From a phage, in the NCBI GenBank assembly GCA_033286805.1, contig GCA_033286805.1_4727.1: a DNA stretch of 64,000 nt; one strand, given 5' to 3'. The notes under the pieces are model-generated. The model was not told the origin of the DNA and ran no database searches. It worked only from the letters and a program-made list of their open reading frames with translations. The translations under genes were made by a program, and so were the position numbers. Below are positions 1-61,132 of the stretch, one piece after another. How positions within the stretch are numbered: position 1 is the first letter of the stretch; every line of letters begins with the position of its first letter.

Positions 1-1
1 T

Positions 2-1955: not shown

Positions 1956-1987
1956 CCCTCTCCCAACCCAGCAGGGAAGGGAGAGGG
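1956..1987. terminator. GC-rich nested stem-loop between convergent genes
   Basis: CCCTCTCCC / GGGAGAGGG arms around loop AACCCAGCAGGGAA; lies between plus gene end 1939 and minus gene end 2005; TTATG follows on minus strand. Confidence 0.45.
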
Positions 1988-2004
1988 CTTATGCTGTTAT
2001 GCTA

Positions 2005-2379
2005 TTAATGTTCGTTCCAGATGGCATCTTCCGGTGGAACAATAGGATCTTTCTTCGGCATTGATGGCACTTCATGACGATGTTTACGGAACTGCCTATC
2101 AATAACCTCACGAAGCCGGTACGCGTCAACCCATGTTGATTTATTGAACAGCTCCAATGTCACAGTTAATCGTGTTCTTGACATTGAATAGCTTTTCTTT
2201 GCAATCAAATTGGGATAATTCAGTTGAGCGAACCACGCACGTATTTGTGCTTCGGTAAAAGCGATGCTGTAATAACTAAGTTTACCGTCATTAAAATCGT
2301 GCGCGTGGGTGTAGCGTCCAGCGTAACGCCAGACAAGATGCACATTCAGATCGATCCATGGTGGGGTGGTATCAGCCAT
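2005..2379 (-). CDS. hypothetical protein
   Basis: 124-aa ORF, first gene of the long minus-strand run. Confidence 0.45.
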   Translation of the reverse strand: MADTTPPWIDLNVHLVWRYAGRYTHAHDFNDGKLSYYSIAFTEAQIRAWFAQLNYPNLIAKKSYSMSRTRLTVTLELFNKSTWVDAYRLREVIDRQFRKHRHEVPSMPKKDPIVPPEDAIWNEH

Positions 2380-2388
2380 GTGTTACCC

Positions 2389-2958
2389 TCAACGATTCTT
2401 CATCACTTTACCCAGGCTTTCGATATTATCCCAAAAGCGATTTTTACTTGGCGCATCGCCAACGATAACCGACATCAAATCGCGACGTTCGCGACTGATG
2501 ATGCCCTGTGATTTCCAGATCACCATCGTCCAGCAAGCTGCCAGAACGAACAGATGGTTAATGCTCGGTTTGGTTTGCGCGATGAACGCAAGCCATGCCC
2601 AGATACCGGTGTATACTATCGTCACTAAAAAGAGCGAGATTGTTGCAACGACAACAACGAAGTTTTGGACAGCGGGTTGATTAGCGTTATCATGAATAGC
2701 GGTAAGATCAGGAAGGTTACCTTCAACTGAACTCGTTTCATCGATTTCCAATTCTTCGATTTCTTTTCGTGTGTCGGGAGCTAATCCGGCATCATCAAGA
2801 TGCTTTTTTAACCGCTGTATACTTAATCGTTGACCGACAGGAATGTTGATGTTGTCGTAACTATTAAGCGCATCAACCAGGGAGCGTCCATCAACGAGAA
2901 CCAAGCTCGCGGTACCCATCGTTTGCGGTTTTATTTTGTAAAGGTCTTTTACTTTCAT
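2389..2958 (-). CDS. hypothetical membrane protein
   Basis: 189-aa ORF with hydrophobic C-terminal segments (VVVVATISLFLVTIVYTGIWAWLAFIA, LFVLAACWTMVIW). Confidence 0.45.
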   Translation of the reverse strand: MKVKDLYKIKPQTMGTASLVLVDGRSLVDALNSYDNINIPVGQRLSIQRLKKHLDDAGLAPDTRKEIEELEIDETSSVEGNLPDLTAIHDNANQPAVQNFVVVVATISLFLVTIVYTGIWAWLAFIAQTKPSINHLFVLAACWTMVIWKSQGIISRERRDLMSVIVGDAPSKNRFWDNIESLGKVMKNR

Positions 2959-2979
2959 GTAGACACCACCTCCAACGTG

Positions 2980-5592
2980 TTAAGCGTCCGGCGTAAAATC
3001 AAAAGGAATGTCCGTACGAATGATATCGTAACGTTTTCCTAGGAAATAAAACTCTTCGGGAACCTGACCAGGAATAATGCTATCGCCGATGAACTGCGGA
3101 TACGCCCAGATGTACTGAGTGAGTCCTTCGAACATATCCAGGTTATTTGCATGGTTACCCATGATACGTTTCCAGAGTTCGCGTTTATACGGTGTTTTAA
3201 CATCGAATCCATAAAGCGGTGCAAGATCTTCACCAGGAACAAATCCCAGGTAATAATGGATCTGACTAACCGGGAAACCAAGCGTATCTCGCGGAATGGT
3301 GATCGCTTGCTCTGCCTTGGTGACATGCGTCTCAATAATCCAGTCGTAGCACTCCGAATAGAACCGGTCGAATTTCTCTGGGTTATACCACGCTTTGGGA
3401 AGATTGAGTTTCTCCGTGAACGCGTTCGACATGATCGTCGGCAAGAACGGAAGAACACCGGTTTTGATCTGCGTGTATTTCGATTTTACCCGATTAACCA
3501 AATTCCAGCAACTGTATCCTAACTGTTCGTTACAAAACTCAACGTAGAGATCGTAGTCACCACCGGATAATGGGTTGTTAATATCACCGATGTCTGCGGC
3601 ATATTTGTTGGGATATCGGTTATTGAAAGCCAGTTTGGTTTGGTAATCGTAGATACACGGTTTGTTGTTCGCTGTATTGATCCACCACCAGGGTTCACCT
3701 ACTTGCACACAAATGTCCTGGACATGGGGGTAGATGATATCAGCAAACGCGGTTAACACATCCCCTAACCACGCCATCGCCTGTTGGTTACATGGAGACA
3801 GCAACCAGGACGGTGGTGTGTATCCGGTTGCTGCGATGTTTCCTTCCCAATCCTGCTGCGCCCACTCGAACGGGCAGGCTGTACTCATCAATTCGTAACT
3901 TAAACTGATGGTGACAGAGAAATGGTGTTTTGCGGCGTATGCAGCGAAAGCTTCATGCCATGCGATACAGGGTGGATTTAATACATCCGTGGTGTTCACC
4001 AGTAACTTACCTGCACTTGGCGTCCAGACAGTATCGTAGAAATGCGACATTCCAACATAGTGCACTAATTCATCCTGATATCCAGCATAAACCAGGTTTT
4101 CAAATACACGCTCTGGCGTGATGTTGTAATGGTCATCATAAGCGGTTATCGCACGAAGTTCGTGTGGCGTACAATGATGGCGATTAACCGTCATTTCCTG
4201 ATACACCCCATCGATAGGAAGAATCTCGAGGGTTAAACCAAGATCGATCGGTGTTTCCAGATAGGTCGTTTCTGTAGCACCTTCTTTATAATGTCGAGAA
4301 CTCATGCTGAACATCAACGACGTTACCGATTCGAGTTCGATAGGCTCGTCAGCATAGAACCCCGCCATTGCGTCATTGAAATCGATCGTTACGATTGCGC
4401 TTCTACCGTCTTCAGAGACATCGGTGGCGTATCGGGTTAATGAGATATACTGACGGCTATCGTCTTTGTGTACGACGGTTAAAACCGGCGGGTTTTCGGT
4501 ATCTGCAAAGTTACGCTGATCGCCAGTAAACGTGATCTTCGCTTTAAAGATCAAACCGAATAACGACGTCATGGGATCATACGCAATACAACCGTGATCC
4601 AGCGTATCCGTTGTCCGCCATTCTATCCCGACCAACCCGTTAGCGGTATGGCATCGCATATACGCATTAAGGACCATGTCTTCACTGACAACCGCGAAGT
4701 TCTCTGTTGACTGACCGTTGATAATCCAATACATCGGTTGCCAGAGGTTACGCGTACCTTTTGCGTAGCGGTAGGTTGGCGCGCCTTTAGGGTTGCCGTT
4801 ATTAAGATGGAATACAGCAGTACCTTGATAATGGTCGTTCGTATTAATCGGAACACTGTAAGCATCACCGAGATCCGTACGTTCCACCTTCTTGACTGTT
4901 GCGTTTTCAAATAACCCACGCAGCGCGGGTAAACCGATATCATCAGGCGCGTTTTCTCGACGAATCGCATCCGCGATGCGGTGGGCTAGGGCGGGGTAAA
5001 TGGTCTCACCCTGTTGTAGGTTTGCAAGACCTACAAAGCGATCGGGAGCGATGCCAGCAATCAATAACTCAACATCACCCTTCGTTCTATCGTCATTAAG
5101 ATATTTCAGTCCGGTAAGGTCAAGATGCTGAATAAGCGACAACAGGTTGTATTTACGGTTTTCAACAGTTAGTACAAGATCGCCTGCCCAAACCAAACTT
5201 CCCTCATCCGCTGTTACTTTAACGGATTGTCGGCCTGTGGTAGACGTTGTTGTCGTTTTATTTAATTGTCCTTGTAGGAAGTCGGTTGCGAGGTCAAAGG
5301 CAATACCGTAACGGTCAGCGACCGCTTGCATGATTTCACGTAACTGGGTATCTTCTTCAATGATAATCTTGACAGGTATTCCCAAGAACGCTTTAGCGAG
5401 GTCTCGTTTAACCAACGAGACGAATACGGATTTGTAGTATCGGCTTCCATCTTTCCCTTTAAAAAGAATGGAGGTTGTTTCGGGTGCCGATAGAACACGT
5501 GCAAATACAACATCGTCGGAAGTAAGAGAAAGTCCGTTTTTCTCGTTGACCAATCTTAGTATTTCATTTTGCGCGGTTTCATGTAACTTCAT
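2980..5592 (-). CDS. putative tail fiber/tailspike-like protein (shared N-terminal module, paralog A)
   Basis: 870 aa; N-terminal ~150 aa (KRDLAKAFLGIPVKI ... ADRYGIAFD) shared with ORFs at 11326, 15669 and 52039; large divergent C-terminus; sits beside the tail fiber genes. Confidence 0.55.
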   Translation of the reverse strand: MKLHETAQNEILRLVNEKNGLSLTSDDVVFARVLSAPETTSILFKGKDGSRYYKSVFVSLVKRDLAKAFLGIPVKIIIEEDTQLREIMQAVADRYGIAFDLATDFLQGQLNKTTTTSTTGRQSVKVTADEGSLVWAGDLVLTVENRKYNLLSLIQHLDLTGLKYLNDDRTKGDVELLIAGIAPDRFVGLANLQQGETIYPALAHRIADAIRRENAPDDIGLPALRGLFENATVKKVERTDLGDAYSVPINTNDHYQGTAVFHLNNGNPKGAPTYRYAKGTRNLWQPMYWIINGQSTENFAVVSEDMVLNAYMRCHTANGLVGIEWRTTDTLDHGCIAYDPMTSLFGLIFKAKITFTGDQRNFADTENPPVLTVVHKDDSRQYISLTRYATDVSEDGRSAIVTIDFNDAMAGFYADEPIELESVTSLMFSMSSRHYKEGATETTYLETPIDLGLTLEILPIDGVYQEMTVNRHHCTPHELRAITAYDDHYNITPERVFENLVYAGYQDELVHYVGMSHFYDTVWTPSAGKLLVNTTDVLNPPCIAWHEAFAAYAAKHHFSVTISLSYELMSTACPFEWAQQDWEGNIAATGYTPPSWLLSPCNQQAMAWLGDVLTAFADIIYPHVQDICVQVGEPWWWINTANNKPCIYDYQTKLAFNNRYPNKYAADIGDINNPLSGGDYDLYVEFCNEQLGYSCWNLVNRVKSKYTQIKTGVLPFLPTIMSNAFTEKLNLPKAWYNPEKFDRFYSECYDWIIETHVTKAEQAITIPRDTLGFPVSQIHYYLGFVPGEDLAPLYGFDVKTPYKRELWKRIMGNHANNLDMFEGLTQYIWAYPQFIGDSIIPGQVPEEFYFLGKRYDIIRTDIPFDFTPDA

Positions 5593-5614
5593 TAAAAACC
5601 TCAGCCCTTTAGAA

Positions 5615-6256
5615 TTAAATGTACTGCTTACCGCCCACGAAGGAAGTTAACCAGTTCCCGCTGACGAGTTGTGATACCCAGCCTGGAACGGCTCTACCAT
5701 TCTGGCTCATGATGTTACCACACCAACCAGGGAATCCGGGACGGATGTAATAGAAAGTTAAATTGTAGAGATGGCAATTCCATACCGCAACGTTATGTTT
5801 ACCAGAAACCGCTTTAAAGACAAACGCGACAGGTAACGGAGACGATAACAATTCGGTCACAGGGACGGCTGACCAGTTCGCATTCGCGTTCCATGGCTGC
5901 CAGGTATGGCTACGCGAGTCACCGTTAACGTTACCGTTGCTACCGCGTCCGCCCGCGTTCCACCATAGCGACGGACTCATGTTCTTAAGTGAGGTAAATT
6001 GCTGTGGTGGAATATTCGGAATGATAACAGGGTTGGTACCTTGTCCGTGTTTCTTTTCTTTTGCGTTCACATACCCGCTTATCGATTCCAGGTATTTGGT
6101 ACCAGGATAATTGTTCTGGACTTGTGTCGCAATATCACGAACGTCGAACGTCCAGCAGATCATGGTGTTGTAGTAAGCGTCGGTGTTATCGTGCCATGAG
6201 TTACCATCTTGTAAACGTGCGCCGCTATTCGGTGTTTTATCTGTGCTTATAGCCAT
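5615..6256 (-). CDS. hypothetical protein
   Basis: 213-aa ORF, Trp/Asn/Gly-rich; no motif recognised. Confidence 0.5.
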   Translation of the reverse strand: MAISTDKTPNSGARLQDGNSWHDNTDAYYNTMICWTFDVRDIATQVQNNYPGTKYLESISGYVNAKEKKHGQGTNPVIIPNIPPQQFTSLKNMSPSLWWNAGGRGSNGNVNGDSRSHTWQPWNANANWSAVPVTELLSSPLPVAFVFKAVSGKHNVAVWNCHLYNLTFYYIRPGFPGWCGNIMSQNGRAVPGWVSQLVSGNWLTSFVGGKQYI

Positions 6257-6438
6257 GGTGTTGTCCTATACGTTGGTGGTTGAGGTGGCGGATATCGGAT
6301 GCGTGTTGTCGTCAGGTAATACATACAGAAACGCCCACTGATAAAACAGTAGCTTCTTTTAAATGGAATTTAGATATCGCGTATTTCTACCTCGTTTCTA
6401 TTCTCAAAAAGGAAATTTCATACGATGACGCCATAGCA

Positions 6439-6468
6439 GCTCCTCCTTCCCTGACGGGTTGGAGGAGC
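6439..6468. terminator. GC-rich stem-loop
   Basis: GCTCCTCC / GGAGGAGC arms; loop TTCCCTGACGGGTT is the reverse complement of the loop of the hairpin at 41502; immediately after the stop of gene 6477..6983. Confidence 0.35.
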
Positions 6469-6476
6469 ATACTTAA

Positions 6477-6983
6477 TTACTTACTGATAACCTCAACGGA
6501 GTTGGGATCAGCGATCAATGCACGGTCGGTAGAACAATTGAAGAAGACCGTACCAACACCATCACCGTTCGAGTTCAGGGTTGAACTTGCGTAAGACAGG
6601 GTTGGTTTATTCATGCGGTAGAAGCGTTCGCTGGTTGCGGTATTGAACCCCAGGTCAACGTAGTCTTTCACCGTGGTATACAACTGGGTGGACTCGAAAA
6701 CGGTTACCGGAGAGTCGACGGTAAATTGACTGCCTTCGTCCACAACCAGAACTTTATCGTTCCAGATTTCAGTGGTTGAGAACTTCGGTTTCCAATGTTC
6801 GAATTCCTGGGTTGCACCCCAGCAAGAATACACAGCGAGATTGCTGTTCTTCTCGACAGGTTTCAACCCCACCAGTTGTGTCAGGTCTTTATCCAGGTTC
6901 GGTAAACCTTCCAGCGTAGCACACCCACCCAGAGAAAGCACCATTAGCATACCAAGAACGATCGCGCAAAGTTTCTTTGTCAT
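6477..6983 (-). CDS. putative lipoprotein
   Basis: N-terminus MTKKLCAIVLGMLMVLSLGGC has a signal peptide and lipobox-like LGGC; 168 aa. Confidence 0.5.
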   Translation of the reverse strand: MTKKLCAIVLGMLMVLSLGGCATLEGLPNLDKDLTQLVGLKPVEKNSNLAVYSCWGATQEFEHWKPKFSTTEIWNDKVLVVDEGSQFTVDSPVTVFESTQLYTTVKDYVDLGFNTATSERFYRMNKPTLSYASSTLNSNGDGVGTVFFNCSTDRALIADPNSVEVISK

Positions 6984-7024
6984 CGGATTTCCTCATGTGT
7001 TAACGGGAGTGATTTCCATAGTAA

Positions 7025-7441
7025 TTACACAGTTGTAGGAAATTCCGGCCAATCGATATTTGGTGCAGCATCGGTATCGACAGCAGTCACCGCATCAGTG
7101 TAATCCAAAACAGCATTAAGTCGGGTCGTTTCTTCCTGAGTCAGTTTTCGCCCAGCCCGTAATTTTAACTGAATAAGATCGATGGAAGCCAGCGCAGAAT
7201 CAATCAAAGATTGTTTTATCTGTTCTGCCTCGGCGACGAGATCTTCGTGTTGCCGCTCGGGTTCCGGAGGTGCGGTAAACTCACCATTTGAGTATGACCA
7301 ACCTATTCCAGGTGACACAGCCTCCTTATCGTCGATATGAACCAACTGCTGATTGTCGAATATATCGAGCTCTGCTTCACCGTCGTAAACAATCGTGTTT
7401 ACTACCACCCCATTTTCAATAACAGCGTATGATGTACTCAT
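7025..7441 (-). CDS. tail fiber assembly chaperone (Tfa-like)
   Basis: Start taken at internal MSTSYAVIENG (ATG ~7441), abutting the fiber gene stop. C-terminal region (LIQLKLRAGRKLTQEETTRLNAVLDYTDAVTAVD ... IDWPEFP) resembles lambda/P2-type Tfa proteins. Confidence 0.6.
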   Translation of the reverse strand: MSTSYAVIENGVVVNTIVYDGEAELDIFDNQQLVHIDDKEAVSPGIGWSYSNGEFTAPPEPERQHEDLVAEAEQIKQSLIDSALASIDLIQLKLRAGRKLTQEETTRLNAVLDYTDAVTAVDTDAAPNIDWPEFPTTV

Positions 7442-10400
7442 TACATAAACTCCTCGATGATGCAAATCCCATTAGCACCACGCCCACCAGGCTTAGCGGT
7501 TCCTGAGTAAGAGTTATCGTAAGCACCGCCACCACCCGAACCAGGCGCGAGGCCGTTATGGGCGGTGCCAACACCAGCGCGACCGCCACCGCCCCAATAT
7601 GACGCACCCCCACATCCACCGACGGCAAGAGTACCGGCTTGTCCATCGTTACCGTCTCCGCCCGGAATGCGTATATCCCCGGTAGTAGGTACGCCCCCAT
7701 AGCCACCGCCAGTGTTTGTGACAGTTGTTTTTCCTGCGCCTTGCCCGCCGGGAGCAGTTAGCAGGGATGCAAATTTACTATCCCCACCCCCGTTCCCAGA
7801 CGTCGCCCCAGAGCCACCGGAACCACCAGAACCAATTACAACAGAATAACTAGCAGCTGTTACCGTTATAACCGAAATTACTGTTCCGCCAGCGCCTCCC
7901 CCAGCGCCAAAAAACGTTTCGCTGTTGGAATAAGCCTGACAGCCACCGCCGCCACCGCCGCCACCGGTTATTGTTACTCTAATCCGTTTTGTTCCTTGTG
8001 TTGGGGTGTACGTCCCTGACGATGTGAAAACACGCATGTTCAGTAAACGTCCGACATATCCGCTAGAATCGGCTAAACCAAGATCTTTAGCTGCTAACGT
8101 GATATTAGCTGTACCGTCAAACGGTTTACCGTTAATCGTGCGCGCGGTCTGCAACTTCGTCGCCGTTGCTGCGTTTCCTGATGTGTTCTGGTTCCCCGCA
8201 GCGTTAACACCCGGCAGATTGATGTTCGCACTACCGTCGAAAGATACCCCACCAATGGTGCGGGCTGTTTTCAGTTTTGTCGCCGTGGCAGCATTACCGG
8301 TTGTGTCTTGGTTACCGGTGGTGTTTACCCCAGGCAGGTTGATATTTGCCGTTCCGTTAAATGAAACACCGCCAATCGTCCTTGCTGTTTGAAGCCTCGT
8401 CGCGGTAGCGGCGTTACCCGTCGTGTTCTGGTTTCCGGTTGTGTTCACACCAGGGATACTATCTTTCGAGGTGTAGATCTGTGCCCATTCTGACCAGTTC
8501 GAATCGGCCGCATCACGACGTGAACGTAGGTAAGCTGGAGCGTATGCACCTGAGGTACCTGACCACCCAATGAGGATTTCACCTTCACCGACCGATGAAG
8601 CCCCTTTAAGATGAATGACGTTACCATAAGCGGTGGGATACCCGTTATTGTACGCTTCATACATCTGGATGCCCGCATTGCTGCCCTGAGCCGTGTTAGC
8701 TAATGCCGTAACACGACCTTTGGAGGCGAGAGCGGTAATACTGAAGCTAATATCCTTAGTACCGTCAAAGGCGACCCCATTAATCTTCCGTGCTGTTTGG
8801 AGTTTCGTGGCGGTAGCCGCATTACCAGAGGTACTCTGATTACCTGCTTTGTTCACGCCAGGCAAATCAATGTTGGCTGTTCCATCAAAGGACACGCCCC
8901 CTATGGTTCTCGCTGTCTGGAGTTTTGTTGCTGAGCCAGCGTTTCCGGAAGTGCTTTGATTACCTGCCGCGTTGACACCTGGTAGGTTAATGCTAGCAGA
9001 GCCATCAAAAGAAACTCCACCGATCGTGATTGGTGTTTTCAATTTCGTGGCTGTCGCAGCATTACCCGTCGTATTCTGATTGCCAGCCGCATTAACGCCT
9101 GGTAATGCGATATCGGTCGTACCATCGAACGCGACACCACCGATTTTACGGGCAGTCTGTAGCTTGGTCGCTGTAGCCGCGTTGCCGCTGGTATTTTGCG
9201 TGCCCGCTTTATTTACGCCTGGTAAATCAATGTTCGCAGTACCATCAAAAGAAACACCCCCGATGGTTCTCGCGGTCTCAAGTTTGGTTGCGCTTCCTGC
9301 GTTTCCGCTGGTGTCTTGGTTTCCCGCTGCATCAACACCCGGTAGACTGATGCTGGCCGAACCATCGAAACTCACACCACCGATCGTAACAGCGGTTTTC
9401 AATTTCGTAGCGGTTGCAGCGTTCCCCGTGGTATTTTGGTTACCTGTCGCATTCACACCCGGTAATGCAATATCCGCTGTTCCGTCAAAGGCAACGCCAC
9501 CGATTCTACGTGCAGTTTGTAGCTTGGTTGCACTAGCAGCGTTACCGCTGGTATTCTGGGTGCCAGCTTTGTTAACACCAGGGAGATCGATGTTAGCAGA
9601 ACCATCGAAGCTAACGCCACCTATCGTTCTTGCAGTAGCAAGTTTAGCTGCTGTAGCAGCGGCGTTACCGACTTTTAACCATTCGCCCCATGGACCATCC
9701 TGGCCGTTCCATGATGCCGTTAAACTACGTACGTAAATATTGCCGGTACATACAGTGTAACGTTGCGTTCCACCGAATTGCCCGGTTGGGAGCACTTCAA
9801 TGTAACCTGCGGCATTTGCTTCAGGGAAATTGTGGGCGACGTCCGCGTTCGTTGATACTGGTTTAGACCAAATACCCACAGACGCTTCAACCGGACCGTA
9901 CGTATTCAGATTTGCGTCGGTGGGAAGTTGTCCTCGAAAACGCTGGAATTGTGTTGCCGATAACCCCAACGTTGTTTGCATGCTTTCAATGCTGGATTGC
10001 TGAAGTAACGTCCGTGCTGTCGACGTAATCACGGTAAGCGCAACTTTATTAACACCGGTGAAATACGGGAGTTTGTCTGCTGATGTCGCTAAACCTGAAA
10101 AGGCGGTCAGTAATGCGTTAAGGGGCTGCTTCCCAGCTAACGCATTTGTTACCGTCGTTGCGAAATTAGGATCACTTCCTATAGCTCGAGCCAGCTTATT
10201 AAGCGTATTTAGCGTCGCTGGTGACGAGTCGATCAGCGCCGTGATCGCACGCATCACAAATTCCGTGTTGGCTATCTGTCGACTGCTATTGTTAACTGCT
10301 GCGGTGGGCGCTGCTGGCGTACCAGTGAATACAGGGCTATTAAGATCCGCCTTGAGGGCGATGAGACGTTTAAGCGCTTCAACATCAACTTTCAGGTTTT

Positions 10401-11319
10401 CCCATCCGATGAGAGAACCACCACTGTTGGTATGATAACGGTTGTACCAGAAGTCACCGTTAACGCCAAAAAAGAATATACATTTCTCTTCGTTTTGTGG
10501 ACCGGAACTATTTCGTGATGAGTCGATATATTTGATTTCAATAAGACCGCTAAACACCACTCCTGGGATTATATTGTTGTCTCCAGCTGATTGTGATACT
10601 TGGTACATCCCCGGGGTTGCAGCTTTAACCCACGTTAAGAATTCTGTTACTCCAGCGTTACCGCTGAAACGCTTAACGTCGGTAAGTATCGCCCCATAAC
10701 CGAACATACCGGGTAAAGCAACTCGCCCATCGGTACGGTCACGAATATCTGTTGCAACAACAGGCAATTGTTTACGAACGGCATTAACCGCTTTAGGCGT
10801 GGCCGATTTTGTCTCGTCGTCGCTATCGGTTTCATTACTTAGAATAGTTAAACCGCGTGTAGTAGTAGTTGCATCAGGAAGAAATGCGTTATCCAACACC
10901 TTAAGCTGTACTGCACTCGTATTACTAACAACGACATGCACTTGACAGTTAAGAACGCTGGTTGCGCCTTCGGCAGGCGTAGGCTTATATCTTTCTGGTG
11001 CACTGCAGACGGCAATCAGAACACCTTGGTCGTCATACAGACCGATCTCACGTACCCAGAACCCACCTTGACCAGCAGGAATAATACCCTCAACGATAAT
11101 CCTAGTTGTGCTATCACCATCCGCATGGATATTAGAAACTTCCCCACGATAAACTTCGTGAACAAGCGCTGTTTGGCTGGCGGTAGGGGTTGGGATCGAG
11201 CCGTTACCATCACCAACGGCAAAGTGTGTGATTTTTAGTTTCTCACCGTCGGGAAGTAACGCAGCGGTGATACGTTCTGCTCCTTTATCGGTAACTACCG
11301 TTATATATGCTGTACTCAT
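7441..11319 (-). CDS. long tail fiber protein
   Basis: 1292 aa. N-terminal tail-fiber/collar-like domain (PTPTASQTALVHEVYRGE); eleven 39-aa tandem repeats; C-terminal polyglycine-rich region (GGGGGGGG ... GGGAGG). Confidence 0.75.
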   Translation of the reverse strand: MSTAYITVVTDKGAERITAALLPDGEKLKITHFAVGDGNGSIPTPTASQTALVHEVYRGEVSNIHADGDSTTRIIVEGIIPAGQGGFWVREIGLYDDQGVLIAVCSAPERYKPTPAEGATSVLNCQVHVVVSNTSAVQLKVLDNAFLPDATTTTRGLTILSNETDSDDETKSATPKAVNAVRKQLPVVATDIRDRTDGRVALPGMFGYGAILTDVKRFSGNAGVTEFLTWVKAATPGMYQVSQSAGDNNIIPGVVFSGLIEIKYIDSSRNSSGPQNEEKCIFFFGVNGDFWYNRYHTNSGGSLIGWENLKVDVEALKRLIALKADLNSPVFTGTPAAPTAAVNNSSRQIANTEFVMRAITALIDSSPATLNTLNKLARAIGSDPNFATTVTNALAGKQPLNALLTAFSGLATSADKLPYFTGVNKVALTVITSTARTLLQQSSIESMQTTLGLSATQFQRFRGQLPTDANLNTYGPVEASVGIWSKPVSTNADVAHNFPEANAAGYIEVLPTGQFGGTQRYTVCTGNIYVRSLTASWNGQDGPWGEWLKVGNAAATAAKLATARTIGGVSFDGSANIDLPGVNKAGTQNTSGNAASATKLQTARRIGGVAFDGTADIALPGVNATGNQNTTGNAATATKLKTAVTIGGVSFDGSASISLPGVDAAGNQDTSGNAGSATKLETARTIGGVSFDGTANIDLPGVNKAGTQNTSGNAATATKLQTARKIGGVAFDGTTDIALPGVNAAGNQNTTGNAATATKLKTPITIGGVSFDGSASINLPGVNAAGNQSTSGNAGSATKLQTARTIGGVSFDGTANIDLPGVNKAGNQSTSGNAATATKLQTARKINGVAFDGTKDISFSITALASKGRVTALANTAQGSNAGIQMYEAYNNGYPTAYGNVIHLKGASSVGEGEILIGWSGTSGAYAPAYLRSRRDAADSNWSEWAQIYTSKDSIPGVNTTGNQNTTGNAATATRLQTARTIGGVSFNGTANINLPGVNTTGNQDTTGNAATATKLKTARTIGGVSFDGSANINLPGVNAAGNQNTSGNAATATKLQTARTINGKPFDGTANITLAAKDLGLADSSGYVGRLLNMRVFTSSGTYTPTQGTKRIRVTITGGGGGGGGCQAYSNSETFFGAGGGAGGTVISVITVTAASYSVVIGSGGSGGSGATSGNGGGDSKFASLLTAPGGQGAGKTTVTNTGGGYGGVPTTGDIRIPGGDGNDGQAGTLAVGGCGGASYWGGGGRAGVGTAHNGLAPGSGGGGAYDNSYSGTAKPGGRGANGICIIEEFM
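8095..8454 (-). repeat. second block of the same 117-bp coding repeat, ~3 copies
   Basis: Fiber residues ~956-1075 repeat the same 39-aa unit after an intervening non-repeat domain. Confidence 0.6.
8740..9663 (-). repeat. in-frame tandem coding repeats, ~8 x 117 bp, inside the tail fiber gene
   Basis: Repeated unit encodes IGGVSFDGSANIDLPGVNKAGTQNTSGNAATATKLQTAR. The same periodicity produces spurious antisense ORFs at 9080..9736. Confidence 0.7.
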
Positions 11320-11325
11320 GGTGTT

Positions 11326-12053: not shown

Positions 12054-12058
12054 ATCGG

Positions 12059-51939: not shown

Positions 51940-51946
51940 TTAAGAA

Positions 51947-51970: not shown

Positions 51971-52038
51971 TTCATGCTGTATTTGTTGCAAGATCGTATG
52001 ACGTATATGCGTTGTACTTATTTAATAAGGCAGAATAA

Positions 52039-53490
52039 ATGAAACTTAAACAAAGCTGGAAAGACGAACTTCTCGCGTTAGTAAATAGCAAAAACAGTTT
52101 ACAGCTGACATTAGCCGACGTAAAATTTGAGTTAACTGAACCGGTAAGCGAAGTGCCCGGAACGGTTGTTGTTACGATCAAACCGAACGATGATAGCCGT
52201 TACTTTAACGAGCAGTCTCTGACCTACATTCGTCGAGACATCGCTAAAAACTTCACCGGGATCCCGTTACGGGTTATCGTTAAAAATGATACCGCCGTAA
52301 GGGATATCATCAACACGATCGCTGAACGTTACGGATTGGTATTTGACACAACCGTCGACTTCCTCGAATCCGAACTGAATAAACAAATTACGTTCGAAGA
52401 CACCGGTATTAAAGACATTACGGTTCCGGTTGCAAACACGTCTTATGTTTGGGCTGGTAATCTTCAGTTCAATATCGCTAACGATACGTTGAGCTTGATT
52501 ACGATCATCAAGCAAACCAATCTTACGAATCTGGTTTATCTGGATGGTGTTGAATCTAACACATCGGGTTCGTTACTATTAGCAACGACCTCGGTTATCG
52601 GCGAAAACGGAAATGCCGAAACAACTGAAGGTGTCCTTGACGCCGCGTACTTCCAGAATATCCTGAACGTCATGGTTCGTTATGGTGATATTACCAGCGA
52701 ACAAATGCAACAAGCAATGCAGACAATTAACGGAAGCGAAGACGCTCGTAGAGTAGAGGTGCGGTCATACGGTGACGCCGAATTATTGGTAACCACCAAG
52801 AAAGATTGGGTTATCGGTAGCCTTAAGGGTGCTATGGTTGTTGGTCACGCTTCACCTAAACCAATCCAATACGTTCTTAAAACAAAAGGCGGCACCATTA
52901 TATTGTCATTAGATGGTTGGACAAATGTCAATATCGATTGGGGTGATGGGAATAAGACGACGCAGGACTCCGGCGATAATGAATATCAGCACAATTACGC
53001 GGACACTACAGAACGTACGATCGTCGCTACGGGTACCCCTACCAACGTTGAAGATACAGACGTACAGCAAAGCTTCACCGGTGGTAACATCACTGAAATC
53101 GTTGACTGGAACAACGGATTACCTAAGGCCCCATCATTACTTGCGGCGAACAGTTTAATTAAGGTTCCCGATTATATCCCGGCATACTGGACATCGTTAG
53201 AAGGTATGTTTACGCGATGCAGCGCTATTAACGACGTGAACATCACCAAATGGAACACCCGCAACATTACTTCAATGAAGGACCTCTTCTACGGTTGCGC
53301 TACGTTCAACCAACCGATCGGTTCGTGGGATGTTTCGTCTGTTAAGAATGCAGACAATATGTTGTCTGGGTGCTTCGCGTTCAATCAGGATCTGAGTGGT
53401 TGGACATTCCCGGCAGGCACTTCACACATCAACTACGACGCCATGACCGCCGCATGGCAGGCTGGTTATAAACCACACTTCACCGAGTAA
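52039..53490 (+). CDS. fiber/spike-module paralog C with BspA/DUF285-like C-terminal repeats
   Basis: N-terminal module (RRDIAKNFTGIPLRVI ... AERYGLVFD ... VPVANTSYVWAGNL) shared with 2980, 11326 and 15669. C-terminus has MF..C..FNQ..W[DN]VS repeats typical of DUF285/BspA-type repeats. Confidence 0.6.
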   Translation: MKLKQSWKDELLALVNSKNSLQLTLADVKFELTEPVSEVPGTVVVTIKPNDDSRYFNEQSLTYIRRDIAKNFTGIPLRVIVKNDTAVRDIINTIAERYGLVFDTTVDFLESELNKQITFEDTGIKDITVPVANTSYVWAGNLQFNIANDTLSLITIIKQTNLTNLVYLDGVESNTSGSLLLATTSVIGENGNAETTEGVLDAAYFQNILNVMVRYGDITSEQMQQAMQTINGSEDARRVEVRSYGDAELLVTTKKDWVIGSLKGAMVVGHASPKPIQYVLKTKGGTIILSLDGWTNVNIDWGDGNKTTQDSGDNEYQHNYADTTERTIVATGTPTNVEDTDVQQSFTGGNITEIVDWNNGLPKAPSLLAANSLIKVPDYIPAYWTSLEGMFTRCSAINDVNITKWNTRNITSMKDLFYGCATFNQPIGSWDVSSVKNADNMLSGCFAFNQDLSGWTFPAGTSHINYDAMTAAWQAGYKPHFTE

Positions 53491-53512
53491 AAAAAAAAAA
53501 ATAGATAGCATA

Positions 53513-53547
53513 TCTTCCTCCCTACCCATAACGGGCGGGGAGGAAGG
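53513..53547. terminator. bidirectional terminator between convergent genes
   Basis: A11 run, then nested hairpin CTTCCTCCC / GGGAGGAAG, then TTTATGTCAATTTAATTT; between plus gene end 53490 and minus gene end 53564. Confidence 0.6.
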
Positions 53548-53563
53548 TTTATGTCAATTTAAT

Positions 53564-54792: not shown

Positions 54793-54860
54793 ACATGCTC
54801 CGGTTATAAGGGCCTACATCGAGGCCCCTCATTGATTTTTGATTCCACCAAACGCTATCG

Positions 54861-57491
54861 TTACAATTCAAAATCTTCATCGATAACACGCTGGGTAAGC
54901 ACTTTGTCGCTGAAGAACTCCACCTTGCGCTGATGGTATTTACGGTGCGCTTCGATAGAAGTACATACCAGATACCAGAACGTTGGCGTCATTCCTTCAA
55001 ACTTCCCTTTCAGCTGACGCAGTCGTCCCAACACCTGAATGTTGCCGGTTCGTGACCCCATCGCTAACGTCATGAACGTCATCACCAAGTCAGGAAGGTC
55101 GATACCGGTACCTGCCGATTTCACGGTTGTAACGCTAATATCGTTATCCAGCAAGACCATGAAATCTTCTTCAGCAGTATAAGGACCGATCTCTAGCTCA
55201 GGAATACGTTCACTGAGATAATGCGACAACGACTTACACATATCAACGGTTGCACAATACACCAGCATCTTCATACCTTCCTGATACTGGTTCATAAAAC
55301 CTTTGATAATAACGGTATAGATGAAGTTAAAGTACGCGAGTTTGAGTTGCTTGTTCTTCATGATAGACTGTTCAAATATCGTGTGCGAATAAGCTCCACC
55401 AAACCCTTTGTATCTGACTTTATCTGTACTGCGTAGTCGATATGTTACCGCATTTACCGCAATGTATTTCTTGTATTCGCCTTTCGCATAACGGGCTTCT
55501 TTCGGATACATCAAATACAGCATCTGTTCGATAAACGGATCATCGGATACCGCTGTTGCCGACAGATAAATGATTTCCGGAATATTGGCGTAACACTTGA
55601 CCTTAAACAAGAAATGCAATGCTTCGTGACACTCGTCATGAATCAGCAAACCTATGCCGGTCTTTTCCCAAAACTCAGCGGGATGGAAGGCATATGGCGC
55701 AACGCAGTTATTCTTCTCGTAGTCCGCAATATAACGTTGGAACATGTTCAAGGAGAACAATGCGATTTTGAAGTCGAGTTCACCCTGTTCAACCAAGGTT
55801 TGAAACTCCAGCATGCTGTAACGAGGAATGTCGGGATGCGGTGGATCCTCCTTAGCGTTCCCGCGTATCTCGATAACATCCCCTGGTTCCATCCCGAAGA
55901 AGTTCAGCAGCGAGCTTCGCCAACCTGGCATATACCGTGGAGAAAGTATAATGCCTGTGCGCACACCCCGTCTAAACACGATTTCCTGCGACATCGCGGT
56001 GTTGTGTGTGACGATAAAGTCTTTCACCACAAACAACGCTGAAGGATCATCGATCGTAATGCAACGTGCATCCGCAACACGGGAAGGTTTGATTGACAGT
56101 ACACGCAGCATACTTTCGAAGTATTGTCCGTCGACAGGACAACGTTCCAGCTTCTTCGGAAGTGTAACGATTTCATGTGGACGTTTATACCGTATCGTAA
56201 CCATGTACGCCAATCGTCCCTTATGTCTTTCCCCCTTGTAGGTGTAATACGGTTGTTTAATACGTAGACGAGCATATCCACCGATCGAACGAACCAAGTA
56301 GATAACGTCATCTGAAAGCTGTTTGCTCGAAGTACAGAAAACAATAGATCCGCCTTTATCTACCGTTCCGTCGGTATCGATAAGACCTGCAAGTATTTCG
56401 CAACGCTGTCTATGCGACGCCATCATGTACTGTTTCGGAACAAACTTCTCCCAGGCTCGTTTACCCATCAACCCCAACTGATCAAGCGCGGATGCTGTCT
56501 CCGACCGCCCACCGTAATTGATTAACGTTGCGGCAGGCGTCTTCGTTACCGCATAGTCGTATTTGTCACGGTACTGTATTTCACAGTCATCAGGAAGACG
56601 ACTTAACACCTTATTCAAGATGAAATCGTCAGGAGTTGTAATGATTGGAGATGTCGTTAAATGACCGTCCCCTAACAGAACACCAAGCACGTACGGATCA
56701 AGCGGTAAATCTGCATCAGGAGTATCCTCAGACTCACAATACGGAATGTAAAGTCGTTTATTGGACAGCTCCAGGATACGAATCATCTCAAGTGTATTGA
56801 TAACCCGCATGGGATAAGGATTGTTTTTGTCCCATCCCCAGTTAGGTCTCATGCACGCCCAGAGATGCTCGCCGCAGGCTTCAACACGACGACCGTCAGC
56901 AAAGACAATCTCATAGAGCTGTTTTGCTTTATGGTCGAAGATATTGGTTACCTTCGTTGGTCGGCCATTAGCAGCCGTGATGGTATCACCTAGCTTCAAA
57001 TCGCCTAATTGACGCCATCCGCCAGGGACTTTTACGAGCGTGGTAAGCGGATTCGCTTTACCAGACCCCGTTTGAGCGGTGTTTAGGCTCATTCTGAAGG
57101 GGGTATCCTTACCCCCGTTCATGTACTCCAGCCATTCTTGTTGATCTTCACGCCACGGAAACTTCCATTTCTTTACGAACTCCACTTCCTTACCTGGTAC
57201 CGGATCGTGATAAACGATTTCCAACCACTCTTTTCGGATTCCTCGAGAGAAGATAAAATCCAAAAACGATTTCAACTGTTCGCGGAGTAAGTATACCTCG
57301 CTATAATCGCTTCTCGCTGCGGCGTAGGTGTTAATGGTATCGGTGACCATTCTCCGTGTACGAGGGTCGCGTCGTTTCCGTAGATGCAAACAACGGTCTC
57401 GAAGGTAATGGCCAATCAAATGGGCAAATCGAAGTCCGTATCCGCTCAGCCTCATGCCATGCGAGAAGACGTCGATACGAGCTAACTTCAT
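54861..57491 (-). CDS. SF2 helicase-like ATPase interrupted by an intein
   Basis: Motif I AQTGSGK is followed by ~352 inserted residues ending HN, then T and the rest of the extein including DExH box LLIHDECHE. ATG at 57489-57491 overlaps the beta-prime stop (ATGA). Confidence 0.65.
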   Translation of the reverse strand: MKLARIDVFSHGMRLSGYGLRFAHLIGHYLRDRCLHLRKRRDPRTRRMVTDTINTYAAARSDYSEVYLLREQLKSFLDFIFSRGIRKEWLEIVYHDPVPGKEVEFVKKWKFPWREDQQEWLEYMNGGKDTPFRMSLNTAQTGSGKANPLTTLVKVPGGWRQLGDLKLGDTITAANGRPTKVTNIFDHKAKQLYEIVFADGRRVEACGEHLWACMRPNWGWDKNNPYPMRVINTLEMIRILELSNKRLYIPYCESEDTPDADLPLDPYVLGVLLGDGHLTTSPIITTPDDFILNKVLSRLPDDCEIQYRDKYDYAVTKTPAATLINYGGRSETASALDQLGLMGKRAWEKFVPKQYMMASHRQRCEILAGLIDTDGTVDKGGSIVFCTSSKQLSDDVIYLVRSIGGYARLRIKQPYYTYKGERHKGRLAYMVTIRYKRPHEIVTLPKKLERCPVDGQYFESMLRVLSIKPSRVADARCITIDDPSALFVVKDFIVTHNTAMSQEIVFRRGVRTGIILSPRYMPGWRSSLLNFFGMEPGDVIEIRGNAKEDPPHPDIPRYSMLEFQTLVEQGELDFKIALFSLNMFQRYIADYEKNNCVAPYAFHPAEFWEKTGIGLLIHDECHEALHFLFKVKCYANIPEIIYLSATAVSDDPFIEQMLYLMYPKEARYAKGEYKKYIAVNAVTYRLRSTDKVRYKGFGGAYSHTIFEQSIMKNKQLKLAYFNFIYTVIIKGFMNQYQEGMKMLVYCATVDMCKSLSHYLSERIPELEIGPYTAEEDFMVLLDNDISVTTVKSAGTGIDLPDLVMTFMTLAMGSRTGNIQVLGRLRQLKGKFEGMTPTFWYLVCTSIEAHRKYHQRKVEFFSDKVLTQRVIDEDFEL
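56001..57056 (-). mobile_element. intein with LAGLIDADG homing-endonuclease domain (in-frame within the helicase)
   Basis: Two LAGLIDADG-type motifs (VLGVLLGDGHL; ILAGLIDTDGTV), Hint-like N-terminal block (LKLGDTITAANG) and C-terminal VTHN followed by Thr. Residues ~146-497 of the host ORF; first intein residue appears to be Ala, so the N-boundary is tentative. Confidence 0.65.
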
Positions 57492-59494
57492 AACGTGATT
57501 ACATCCTCCGGTTTAGGTTCTTTACGCGGTAAAAGCATGTAGTCGATCGGATGATCCGGCTTCATGGTTGGGATATAACTGTTCGGGTTTTGGAACGCAT
57601 CCAGTTGCTCTTGGTGAGCGAACTTCATACTCAAGGAGCGCATGTTCATGTTCTTCTTGAAGGTACTGAAGTATCGTGTTGTTCCCTGTTTCGGCATGCG
57701 ATAATCTTTCGTGTGTGGCGAACGAATCATGCTGGCGTAGAGAATAACGTCGAGATGCGAAAGGTTCATTCGCAGACGCTGGGCACACAGGCGATGCCAA
57801 TAATACAGCACGTTTGCAACTTCTTCCGGTGTTGCTTCGTCTTCCGAGAGGAATCCGGCACTGAAAGAACCTTTCCCGAATTTGAACTCACGTTCGATTT
57901 CTTTTGCGTATTCCATCATGTTTTTGTGGATTAACGGCATCTGGAATAACGTACGTGAATTGTCCCAATGTTTCAAGTCGAAAATCACAATCCCGTCAGA
58001 CGTCACTTCCCAGCTATGGCGTTTAAGATAACGGATAAACGCTTTACTCGGGACGACGGGACGTCCACAGAAATCGAAATTGACTTTGAGCTTACGATAG
58101 CTTTCATCTTTCCTGTCGTAAATCTCCATATCACAAAGCGTCATGTTAAACAGACGTTGCGGTATCAGCGAACTGATTTCTTCCGCTTCGGCTACATCGT
58201 ACAACATGTTCGCAAGACCTAACTTCATCTTAATCAGCACGTGTTTACCTTTCAGCTCACGTGCGAGTTTGATGTCGTTCATGTTCTGGCTGTAGCGAAG
58301 GATATGTTGATATTCCGGCGGGATTGGTGCTGTGGATACCGTTGACGAACCATCGTGGTGTTTGGTGGAAAGAATGTTCTGCGTTACCTGTTGCGAACAG
58401 GTACGCGCTGCGCCATCGCCAACATTATCGGTTAGTGCGAAGTTATGACTTAATTCACCATAACACGTTGTACATACCCCAGCAGGATCGGGATGATGAC
58501 AATAGTTAACGGAGCGCATGCGTACCGTCGTGCCGATCAATTCTTTCATGTGTGGTTGTATAGCTACCAACGAACCGTCATCACGAATAATGAATCGACC
58601 ATGGAAGCCACGCAGGTCGGTCTCATCGCGGATTGGCATCGGGATGGTCTCTTTACTACCACAATCACCAGGATGAAGTCGTTGTACAACCGCTGTCGCT
58701 ATCTGAAGTTCACGACCGAAATATTCAGACTTTTTAATCTGCTCTTTGTTGAACAGCAACGATTTCGCCGCAGAACGACTTTCTTTCAAGCTGTCGGGAA
58801 GAGAGATCAAACCAGCTGCGTATGACCGCATTACTGGATCACGGAATATCTCGGAGTTAATATCAGTCAAGAATCCACGCATCCCAATACACTGTAGCAC
58901 CTGCCCAATCGAAACGTGTTCGGTTCTTACCGCACGTGCAATAGGGTTTGCATGTAACGTTTTATCGGTGCTCAGTACCTTCGTCAGTTTCTTGTATGCG
59001 CTTTCGATACCTTCGCGGGTGGGTTCCGCTTCAGCGATGATTTTCTTAACTTCAGGGTGTACAGTAATCTGATAAAAATCATCCGCACAAATAGTTGTTA
59101 CGTATTCCTCCAACGCATACGTAAAGAAGTTATACACATTGTTAAACATATCGAACAATGCTTTCCAGAGAACCTCGCGATTCTCTTGTGGGTAAGCATA
59201 CATACATTGACGATACGCTGCGCTTTGCAACGCAACCGACGAACCAGCAGTAAACTTGCGTTTATCGACCAGGTTCTCTTTTGTCAACGGTGTCTCAGGA
59301 TACATGCGATGCACAGACCAATGCATGTAACTAAAGAAAATGCGTCGCGCACGTAATTCATGAACGCCATCGTCCATCTCGATATATACACGGTCATTAG
59401 GCTGTGCCCATTCGAACACCTCATCAACCGGCCAGTGCATAAGCTCGCGTGCCCTCACACGACGTTTCGTGGTGGTCGTCTGTGTTGTATTCAT
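57488..59494 (-). CDS. divergent multisubunit RNA polymerase beta-prime subunit fragment (C-terminal portion)
   Basis: RMRSVNYCHHPDPAGVCTTCYGELSHN aligns with E. coli beta-prime [26 protein letters not shown]; the following GDGAARTCSQQVTQNILSTKHHDG aligns with trigger-loop region [24 protein letters not shown]. ATG verified at 59492-59494. Confidence 0.65.
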   Translation of the reverse strand: MNTTQTTTTKRRVRARELMHWPVDEVFEWAQPNDRVYIEMDDGVHELRARRIFFSYMHWSVHRMYPETPLTKENLVDKRKFTAGSSVALQSAAYRQCMYAYPQENREVLWKALFDMFNNVYNFFTYALEEYVTTICADDFYQITVHPEVKKIIAEAEPTREGIESAYKKLTKVLSTDKTLHANPIARAVRTEHVSIGQVLQCIGMRGFLTDINSEIFRDPVMRSYAAGLISLPDSLKESRSAAKSLLFNKEQIKKSEYFGRELQIATAVVQRLHPGDCGSKETIPMPIRDETDLRGFHGRFIIRDDGSLVAIQPHMKELIGTTVRMRSVNYCHHPDPAGVCTTCYGELSHNFALTDNVGDGAARTCSQQVTQNILSTKHHDGSSTVSTAPIPPEYQHILRYSQNMNDIKLARELKGKHVLIKMKLGLANMLYDVAEAEEISSLIPQRLFNMTLCDMEIYDRKDESYRKLKVNFDFCGRPVVPSKAFIRYLKRHSWEVTSDGIVIFDLKHWDNSRTLFQMPLIHKNMMEYAKEIEREFKFGKGSFSAGFLSEDEATPEEVANVLYYWHRLCAQRLRMNLSHLDVILYASMIRSPHTKDYRMPKQGTTRYFSTFKKNMNMRSLSMKFAHQEQLDAFQNPNSYIPTMKPDHPIDYMLLPRKEPKPEDVITL

Positions 59495-60125: not shown

Positions 60126-60239
60126 AATCTCATTTCCTCTTATACGTTAGGATAGATGACATGTTGGATATACGTTGCCTTTGCATATATTGCTTTATTT
60201 CCGTCAGAAATAACGGAAAATAAAAACAACGACATAATT

Positions 60240-60269
60240 CCCTCCCACCTCCACATGGGAGAGGGAGGG
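60240..60269 (-). terminator. rho-independent terminator
   Basis: CCCTCCC / GGGAGGG stem followed on the minus strand by GAAUUAUGUCGUUGUUUUUAUUUUCC; just after the stop of gene 60283..60645. Confidence 0.55.
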
Positions 60270-60282
60270 TTATTCGTGTTTA

Positions 60283-60645
60283 TTATTCTACGCTGTCTTC
60301 TTCCGTATCTTCCTCTTCGGAACCATCGAATGTTTTCATTGTGACGGTGGTATCCCAGTTAGCCGCGTAATCAGCCATCGCTTCACGCAGCGCTTCTTCA
60401 CCAGCATCACCAGCCAGGTCAAGTACAACCAAACCCTGTGCGACGTTTTGAGCAACGGTATCAATAACGGTTGCATCTTCTTCAAAACTACGTACGGGTT
60501 CAATGGTACCTACATCAACAGCGTAGTTCGTGGTTGCTGTAAACACGGCGACTTGTAGCGCATTGCTATCTTCATCATGCAGTGCTGCTTCAATACCGAT
60601 CGGACGAGCCAGTTCTTGTAGTGTTAATTTGCGAATTAAGTTCAT
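60283..60645 (-). CDS. hypothetical acidic protein
   Basis: 120-aa ORF with highly acidic C-terminus (SEEEDTEEDSVE). Confidence 0.45.
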   Translation of the reverse strand: MNLIRKLTLQELARPIGIEAALHDEDSNALQVAVFTATTNYAVDVGTIEPVRSFEEDATVIDTVAQNVAQGLVVLDLAGDAGEEALREAMADYAANWDTTVTMKTFDGSEEEDTEEDSVE

Positions 60646-60677
60646 TATGTTTTCCTCAGGTGAATGTTAGCAATCGT

Positions 60678-61103
60678 TTAAAACTTTAAAACTTTTTCGA
60701 TACGATGGTTGACGAGTTCATTGAACGACTCTTCAGCTTGTTCGATGATTTCATCAACGTCGATATCTAATTGTTGGGGTTGGATAACATGCTCTTTCAT
60801 GGTTTCCAGCCAGTATTCGGCTTTAATCATGACGTTAGCGACGTGTTCGACCTGGCTGCGTATGTCGACGATCTGGCAGTCAGGATTGTTAATATCGATG
60901 ATGTGTCCGTGGTGGTTGATAAAACCTAGCTTATTTGATGCCCTTACCGCATCGCGGGTAAGTTCTTGCAAGATTAAATTATTAACGTAGTTCACTGCTA
61001 CGGAACGATTTTCGTTATCACTCATACCAGGGATCCTCTTTAAGTCATCACATTCTAGTGTTAAGCAGTTAAAATAAACCGTTCCTTTTATCAGCATAAA
61101 CAT
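60678..61103 (-). CDS. hypothetical protein
   Basis: 141-aa ORF; ATG at 61101-61103 directly abuts the upstream hairpin, so the second ATG at ~61097 may be the real start. Confidence 0.45.
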   Translation of the reverse strand: MFMLIKGTVYFNCLTLECDDLKRIPGMSDNENRSVAVNYVNNLILQELTRDAVRASNKLGFINHHGHIIDINNPDCQIVDIRSQVEHVANVMIKAEYWLETMKEHVIQPQQLDIDVDEIIEQAEESFNELVNHRIEKVLKF

Positions 61104-61132
61104 CCTCCTCCCACCACATGGGTAGGAGGAGG
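61104..61132 (-). terminator. stem-loop abutting a start codon
   Basis: CCTCCTCC / GGAGGAGG stem; on the mRNA the 3' arm GGAGGAGG is followed immediately by AUGUUUAUG. Confidence 0.4.

Follow-up and report, generated by a model that had tools for sequence, protein, structure and literature searches.

A family of intergenic hairpins followed by a short TATG-containing tail was analyzed in a stretch of phage DNA of 64,000 nucleotides (NCBI GenBank assembly GCA_033286805.1, contig GCA_033286805.1_4727.1), which is referred to at its full length as the window. These elements are probably factor-independent terminators for the phage's own multisubunit RNA polymerases and would represent the version of the conserved phiKZ/201phi2-1 terminator that is used in the lineage of Escherichia phage vB_EcoM_Goslar (hereafter Goslar). 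How the elements are built, the coupling of hairpins to tails beyond chance, the placement past stop codons, the orientation, the conservation in Goslar and the match to the phiKZ motif were observed directly in this analysis, and transcript 3' ends at the motif have been shown by others, in phiKZ only. This kind of element is already known as the phiKZ-type terminator; new is its occurrence in the Goslar lineage, for which it is undescribed in the literature searched.

A 3.9-kb probe from the window gave Goslar, a nucleus-forming chimallivirus, as its sole match, and the whole window is colinear with Goslar positions 91,490-156,031 at ~94-97% identity with few indels. Judged from these matches, the window belongs to a Goslar-like jumbo phage (chimallivirus) of E. 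coli. The minus strand holds nearly all of its genes, the exceptions being 1-1939 and 49858-53490. Gene ends were transferred from the Goslar coding sequences, replacing a greedy open reading frame (ORF) model with mis-set starts, and the placement of the hairpins was read in the direction of transcription from 41 intergenic gaps, comprising every gap of 25 nt or more. Hairpins were detected as GC-rich stems of at least 6 pairs, with at least 5 G-C pairs, anchored on the outermost G-C pair. A sliding 46-nt minimum free energy (MFE) scan was dropped, as it returned hundreds of in-gene hairpins at -12 to -15.5 kcal/mol and its stem boundaries drifted because CATAA/TTATG often pairs.

The first-pass annotation had described a family of hairpins with an adjoining TATG motif, and this family proved to be real. 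In 13 of 14 loci the arms are C-rich on the 5' side and G-rich on the 3' side (the exception being 21342), and TATG lies 1-5 nt past the stem at 12 loci, usually followed by C/T, C/T and G. Ten of the 11 sites originally listed were retained (1956, 18435, 25299, 39904, 41502, 47875, 53513, 60240 and 61104, as well as 21342 as a TATA variant), and TATG tails on both strands were confirmed at 1956, 41502, 53513 and 61104. The eleventh, 46439, was ruled out as a family member by its opposite arm polarity; the nearest TATG is 10 nt off and holds a start codon. Four members were added, namely 6439-6468(-), 11967-11998(-), 31421-31454(-) and 34206-34224(-). Longer two-tier hairpins are present at 1956, 6439, 41502, 53514, 60240 and 61104; in these, the outer C-rich/G-rich stem is followed inward by an internal loop and then by a short G-C helix, which is CCC-N4/5-GGG at four of the six loci. 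The folded elements (15, covering 13 loci) were all stable, with -14.8 to -31.8 kcal/mol and z-scores of -2.2 to -6.5. The 14 loci are given below, with gene numbers according to Goslar and G denoting the last base of TATG.

1945-1999, both strands: putative two-tier terminator for both directions where the convergent gp083 and gp084 homologues meet; hairpin 1956-1987, CCCTCTCCC-AA-CCC-AGCA-GGG-AA-GGGAGAGGG, -31.8 and -28.3 kcal/mol; plus-strand tail CTTATGCTG, G at 1993; minus-strand tail TTATGTTAC, G at 1951; identical in Goslar, which annotates a putative terminator there.
6428-6468, minus strand: two-tier hairpin 6439-6468, -25.1 kcal/mol, beginning 8 nt past the gp088 stop codon; tail TGCTATGGCG, G at 6432; identical in Goslar.
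11956-11998, minus strand: hairpin 11967-11998 of 13 bp, -22.5 kcal/mol, the second of two after the gp092 tail-protein gene; tail TAATATGCGCG, G at 11960.
18424-18459, minus strand: hairpin 18435-18459, CCCTTCCTGC..GCGGGAAGGG, beginning 14 nt past the endolysin (gp098) stop codon; tail TTTATGCTGTT, G at 18429.
21331-21361, minus strand: variant hairpin 21342-21361, GGTCCCCC..GGGGGCC, beginning 3 nt past the gp105 stop codon; tail TTTATACCGAT, which reads TTTATACCG, with TATA replacing TATG.
25289-25318, minus strand: hairpin 25300-25318, CCCTCCC-GACAT-GGGAGGG, beginning 5 nt past the gp112 stop codon; tail CTTATGCCGAT, G at 25294.
31410-31454, minus strand: hairpin 31421-31454, -27.8 kcal/mol, after the gp123 stop codon; tail GTTATGCTGAT, G at 31415; hairpin and tail unchanged compared with Goslar.
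34194-34224, minus strand: hairpin 34206-34224, CCCCGTC-TTAAT-GACGGGG; tail GATACGCTT, a natural variant with TACG in the window and TATG in Goslar.
39893-39923, minus strand: hairpin 39905-39923, GCCTCCC-GTAAT-GGGAGGC, beginning 13 nt past the gp143 stop codon; tail TTTTATGCCGT, G at 39898; Goslar annotates a terminator at the equivalent place.
41491-41545, both strands: two-tier hairpin 41502-41533, -29.6 kcal/mol, with a TATG tail on each strand; minus-strand tail TTATGTTCG, G at 41497, ~20 nt before an ORF start; plus-strand tail GATATGCCG, G at 41539.
47865-47893, minus strand: hairpin 47876-47893, CCCTCCC-TTCG-GGGAGGG, beginning 10 nt past the gp157 stop codon; tail TTTATGCCGCG, G at 47870.
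53503-53558, both strands: putative two-tier terminator for both directions where gp161 and gp162 converge; hairpin 53514-53546, -26.0 and -25.0 kcal/mol; plus-strand tail GTTTATGTC, G at 53553; minus-strand tail ATATGCTAT, G at 53509.
60229-60269, minus strand: hairpin 60240-60269, beginning 13 nt past the gp168 stop codon; tail AATTATGTCGT, G at 60233; plus-strand tail TTATTCGTG.
61090-61146, both strands: hairpin 61104-61132, CCTCCTCC..GGAGGAGG, -24.9 kcal/mol; minus-strand tail ATGTTTATGCTG, G at 61095; plus-strand tail CGTAATATGCATC, G at 61141.

Each hairpin begins 3-23 nt past the upstream stop codon. The spacing between the G of TATG and the start codon that follows varies between about 20 and about 180 nt, and no particular length is favoured. 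In co-directional gaps the tail lies on the sense strand at 10 hairpins and on the antisense strand at 2. At both convergent junctions (1956 and 53514) tails are present on both strands, and no gene lies downstream on either side. The elements are therefore found downstream of genes, with bidirectional copies between convergent genes, and their placement, the variable distance to the start codon and the orientation of the tail all fit terminators. When the whole Goslar genome was searched with the pattern, 11 two-tier copies were obtained, 7 of which are located at convergent junctions or at the genome end.

The association of hairpin and tail was then quantified. TATG ranked first among all 256 tetramers 0-5 nt past GC-rich hairpins in the window (24 observed, 2.4 expected), followed by TTAT in second place. 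After nested hits had been merged, and with the TATG density of intergenic DNA as the stricter background, 16 intergenic hairpin-strands out of 47 had TATG at offset 0-6, where 1.5 were expected (binomial p = 7e-13); a test of enrichment next to hairpins had been called for in the first-pass annotation. Among in-gene hairpin-strands only 5 of 79 carried the tail (Fisher p = 1e-4). TTTATG alone showed no enrichment in the window (45 observed, 47 expected), and the signal therefore lies in hairpin and motif occurring together. Longer versions of the motif were more frequent than expected, as TATGCYG occurred 30 times in the window (13.6 expected) and GGRGGNYTTATKYYG, to which the elements at 25300 and 47876 are exact matches, 16 times (5.9 expected). 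TATG was also the top tetramer past hairpins in the whole Goslar genome (68 observed, 7.2 expected) and in the 100-150 kb region of phiKZ (21 observed, 1.55 expected). The whole window was without any Rfam match at the gathering score.

In phiKZ, 61 predicted intrinsic terminators share the motif BCCYCCCCHWWDGGGRRGGBYTTATKYYGT, in which a stem-loop is followed by a TTAT region, and transcript ends were mapped by Oxford Nanopore (ONT)-cappable-seq (Putzeys et al., 2024, microLife, PMC10914365). The 3'-end coordinates used here were taken from the bioRxiv supplement, mainly for sites in 70-168 kb. For six TATG-tailed phiKZ sites from this set that were placed in 100-150 kb, the 3' end lies 5-8 nt past the stem and -1 to +2 nt from the G, and the TATA-tailed hairpins T054 and T064 are also located at mapped 3' ends. 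The window shares with phiKZ the C-rich/G-rich stem-loop, the BYTTATKYYGT tail and a similarity beyond chance, as the 30-nt consensus matches 39894-39923(-) with 2 mismatches (0 expected). In addition, a sequence-only nhmmer profile was built from a hand-structured alignment of 21 phiKZ elements; a MAFFT alignment was unsuited to a covariance model, being anchored on TATG with the stems out of register. With this profile the top 9 hits in the window were sites from the first-pass annotation, 4 of them above the best of 30 shuffles, and 6 hits reached at least 6 bits against 0.4 in shuffles. The elements at 18435, 21342 and 60240 ranked third, fifth and sixth. The profile is short and weak, its best hit being the 47876 element with 13.5 bits (E = 0.005). 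The tail logo of Goslar (n=62), T-TATG-Y-Y-G-T, agrees with TTATKYYGT of phiKZ. Among the functions initially considered, intrinsic terminators with a stereotyped tail are the one supported by this agreement in sequence and geometry with the phiKZ motif at ONT-cappable-seq 3' ends.

The likeness to the phiKZ terminator comprises the C-rich/G-rich stem-loop directly followed by (T)TTAT-G/T-Y-Y-G-T, the intergenic location after genes, the bidirectional copies at convergent genes and the presence of the phage's own virion RNA polymerase (vRNAP) and non-virion RNA polymerase (nvRNAP). Differences are the E. coli host, the polymerases, which are only about 24-30% identical to those of phiKZ, the many copies in the window with longer two-tier stems and an inner CCC-N4-GGG helix, and the spacer between stem and TATG (1-5 nt in the window, about 2 in phiKZ); moreover, 3' ends have been mapped in phiKZ only. 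For 201phi2-1, terminator motif A is reported to resemble the phiKZ motif (n=59) and the A/B combination to be an elongated hairpin (PMC11512511), and by this description the two-tier hairpins of the window are comparable to it. Regarding the polymerases, Goslar annotates RNA polymerase beta-type subunits at the equivalents of 57488-59494 and 61566-63734. The window encodes phiKZ-like multisubunit RNA polymerases. Of these two equivalents, 57488-59494 matches nvRNAP beta' subunits of Erwinia phage RAY and of phiKZ; the gp165 homologue has 29.5% identity to its phiKZ counterpart and matches nvRNAP beta' subunit 2 annotated in RAY.

Comparison of the window with Goslar showed that TATG is unchanged in 12 of 12 TATG-tailed loci, while the flanking intergenic bases vary. 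At 39905, for instance, 5 substitutions fall in the 25 nt upstream and none in hairpin or tail. Differences within the hairpins amount to one G-U change and two loop inversions; at ~96% identity, changes in the stems are too sparse for a covariation test. The two inverted loops belong to the hairpins 18435-18459 and 16585-16615; they are the reverse complements of those in Goslar (GCGTAAGGC against GCCTTACGC and CTAAAAAG against CTTTTTAG), with the stems and, at 18435, also the tail being kept. We read these inversions as strand switching within a DNA palindrome.

To extend the comparison, the same hairpin-tetramer test was run on 30-42 kb from each of several other jumbo phages. Past hairpins, TATG was enriched 8.9-fold in RAY (Erwinia), 9.3-fold in RP12 (Ralstonia) and 10.8-fold in FLC1-1B (Ralstonia). 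In EL, TTAT was enriched 6-fold, with TATG at 3 observed and 0.7 expected, the Vibrio phages pir03 and sm033 have TATT-type tails, and the chimallivirus SPN3US has plain T-tracts past its hairpins. A TATG signal past hairpins was not found in the 30-42 kb of AR9. The stems of RAY are of opposite polarity (GAGGAGGG..CCCTCCTC, e.g. at 5316-5335 and 17425-17444) and are followed by the same tail, TTATGCCG, and therefore the conserved word is the tail and not the stem sequence. As the tail is kept across phages of Pseudomonas, Escherichia, Erwinia and Ralstonia with polymerases that are about 25-30% identical, we infer that it is read by the phage polymerase and not by a host factor.

Canonical bacterial intrinsic terminators consist of a GC-rich hairpin and a 7-9 nt U-tract. 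The elements described here resemble them in the GC-rich hairpin and in release a few nt past the stem (5-8 nt in phiKZ), but differ by a specific tail and by conserved bases beyond the release point; tails such as CUUAUGCC and UUAUGUUC hold 3-5 U in 8 nt. In the proposed mechanism the nascent RNA would fold into a very stable C-rich/G-rich hairpin, and the polymerase would halt 5-8 nt beyond it, within the stereotyped tail (T)T-TATG-Y-Y-G-T, which would replace the long bacterial U-tract. The longer two-tier versions with tails on both strands would act in both directions, at the two convergent junctions and in some co-directional gaps. Since Y-Y-G-T is conserved past the mapped 3' ends, the signal is presumably read on the DNA or by the polymerase, and not only in the released RNA.

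A different function was suggested by the mention, in the first-pass annotation, of a TATG element in late promoters of phiKZ-like phages. This proved correct, as TATG is the core of phiKZ late promoters with its G as +1, and is necessary but insufficient for initiation by nvRNAP (Yakunina et al., 2015, PMC4666361); on the non-template strand, the promoter TATG is bound by gp123, the beta-like subunit (PMC12809450). The elements might accordingly be terminator-promoter cassettes, in which the hairpin ends the upstream transcript and the G of the adjoining TATG starts that of the downstream gene. The four bases, the non-template strand and the phage family are indeed the same, several sites in the window (25294, 41497, 47870, 18429 and 61095) lie about 20-70 nt upstream of a start codon, and the phiKZ late starts P049 and P075 are located at a second TATG 10-14 nt past a terminator stem. 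However, among the 119 mapped phiKZ start sites that were compared (P008-P126 of P001-P149), none is located at a terminator-tail TATG, and in 100-150 kb none of 17 tail TATGs has one of these sites within 3 nt. Where a hairpin is present in the 50 nt upstream of such a start (P016, P017, P023, P028 and P054), the start lies 20-40 nt beyond the tail, and the reference late promoter P119L has no upstream hairpin. In the window TATG is present, but its position does not suit a promoter for the gene that follows: it keeps its spacing to the hairpin and to the stop codon upstream, but not to the start codon beyond it, and at the convergent junctions both tails face the end of the oncoming gene with nothing downstream to express. 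The phiKZ start sites, the convergent copies and the unfixed distance to the start codon argue against the cassette as a general function, single sites aside, and we consider it unlikely.

It is distinctly unlikely that the hairpins instead serve RNA stability or processing, by protecting the 3' end of the mRNA or by marking a cleavage or protein-binding site, with 3' ends that are formed post-transcriptionally. Stable 3' hairpins stall 3'-5' exonucleases a few nt downstream of the stem, and 3' ends from ONT sequencing cannot tell termination from trimming. Trimming would need no specific tail, yet T-TATG-YYGT is conserved, including the Y-Y-G-T past the mapped 3' ends, and this tail is oriented with transcription and found in phages of four distant host genera. 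The nucleus-associated RNA-binding protein ChmC is present in these phages, but no sequence motif was found for its binding (bioRxiv 10.1101/2023.09.22.559000). A palindromic repeat acting at the DNA level (for example as a cruciform site, or as a small element that is mobile or prone to recombination) without transcriptional role is highly improbable, because the near-identical two-tier copies (1956, 6439 and 41502; 11 in Goslar) and the two inverted loops that would speak for it are outweighed by the almost exclusive location of the elements in intergenic gaps just past stop codons, by a tail that follows the transcribed strand and by the coincidence of the same motif with phiKZ RNA 3' ends in the mapped set.

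Several points count against termination as the function of the elements. The phiKZ ONT 3' ends, taken alone, do not separate termination from trimming back to a protective hairpin, and for the phage of the window termination is inferred by homology. A generic terminator scan of 1-20000 listed none of the four family members in that region, the textbook bacterial rule not being followed. Furthermore, roughly one in two of the GC-rich hairpins that lie between genes of the window is without the tail, so that the tail is not obligatory at every 3'-end hairpin.

If the elements are terminators, the coincidence between their tail and the late-promoter core allows a tentative idea, which we regard as possible though doubtful: the pocket of the nvRNAP beta-like subunit (phiKZ gp123; Goslar gp039) that holds the late-promoter TATG may also read the terminator tail on the non-template strand. 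While the hairpin forms, the elongating polymerase would be held in place with the G in its active site. The same four bases would then signal 'start' when alone and 'stop' behind a hairpin. In favour of this we count the position of the phiKZ 3' ends relative to the G together with the conserved bases past them, the tail being kept despite the reversed stem polarity in RAY, and the variation of the tail by lineage, with TATG in phiKZ, Goslar, RAY, RP12 and FLC1-1B, TATT-type tails in the Vibrio phages and EL, and T-tracts in SPN3US. In seven aligned homologues (22-32% identity), F151 and H331 of the gp123 pocket never vary, and the positions of H185 and Y406 always hold an aromatic residue; across these homologues the residue pattern shows no split between phages with TATG tails and others. 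The coincidence of tail and promoter core makes a shared recognition mechanism directly testable.

For annotation, the hairpin-tail pair provides a simple rule for the ends of transcription units in Goslar-like phages, and 62 TATG-tailed hairpin-strands were found in Goslar, for which the deposited annotation gives roughly 22 terminators of the generic kind. The rule also points to start codons that use the ATG of the tail and are probably mis-called. The Goslar start codons of gp111 and gp167 map to the ATG within a tail TATG, at 25294-25296 and 60233-60235 (-), respectively. For gp111 a better start is found at 25275, 21 nt downstream, with AAGGA ahead of it. The annotated starts of gp111 and gp167, and perhaps the 31-aa (amino acid) gp167 itself, are probably mis-called.

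Other GC-rich hairpins between genes form a second set, without a TATG tail:

12037-12053, minus strand: G-rich 5' arm.
16585-16615: hairpin with the inverted loop described above.
18066-18102: hairpin without tail.
38522-38539: G-rich 5' arm.
40538-40561: G-rich 5' arm; Goslar annotates a terminator at the equivalent place.
46437-46466: G-rich 5' arm.
51944-51973, plus strand: Goslar annotates a terminator at the equivalent place.
54810-54827: G-rich 5' arm.

These hairpins are probably terminators of another flavour, outside the TATG-tailed family. A further arrangement was observed in the divergent gap 49750-49857 (+), upstream of an SNF2-type helicase gene. TTTATG is present there at 49750-49755, followed by a strong hairpin at 49794-49822 (CTCCTCCCCA..TGGGGAGGAG) and then TTTTTATCATAC, 36 nt before the ATG, and Goslar annotates a terminator in the equivalent gap. 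This could be a leader RNA of ~70-80 nt or an attenuator in the 5' untranslated region (5'UTR), like the short 5'UTR RNAs of phiKZ.

The comparison with Goslar also revealed differences in genes of the window. The DNA helicase gene homologous to gp164 (54861-57491, minus strand) encodes 876 aa in the window phage and 524 aa in Goslar. It contains an in-frame insert of ~1.06 kb at about 55994-57057 with a LAGLIDADG homing-endonuclease domain (Pfam PF14528, E = 1.9e-6); this insert, which Goslar does not have, looks like an intein. Three Goslar segments (gp096, gp108 and gp120) are missing from the window, at about 18030-18060, 23233-23284 and 29024. Of the plus-strand gp145 of Goslar only a frameshifted remnant is left, and a minus-strand ORF at 41180-41479 fits better. 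In the tail fibre gene (7441-11319), the region 8134-9918 aligns to Goslar as overlapping, shifted pieces with 71-88% identity, a pattern that points to internal repeats and a diverged receptor-binding region. Finally, the exact 12-mer CGGCTATATTAC occurs twice, at 21756-21767 (-) and 49698-49709 (-). Both copies are intergenic and lie about 50-75 nt upstream of minus-strand gene starts (21682 and 49649), and the 12-mer resembles the AT-rich early (virion RNA polymerase) promoters listed for phiKZ, which end in ...TATATTAC.

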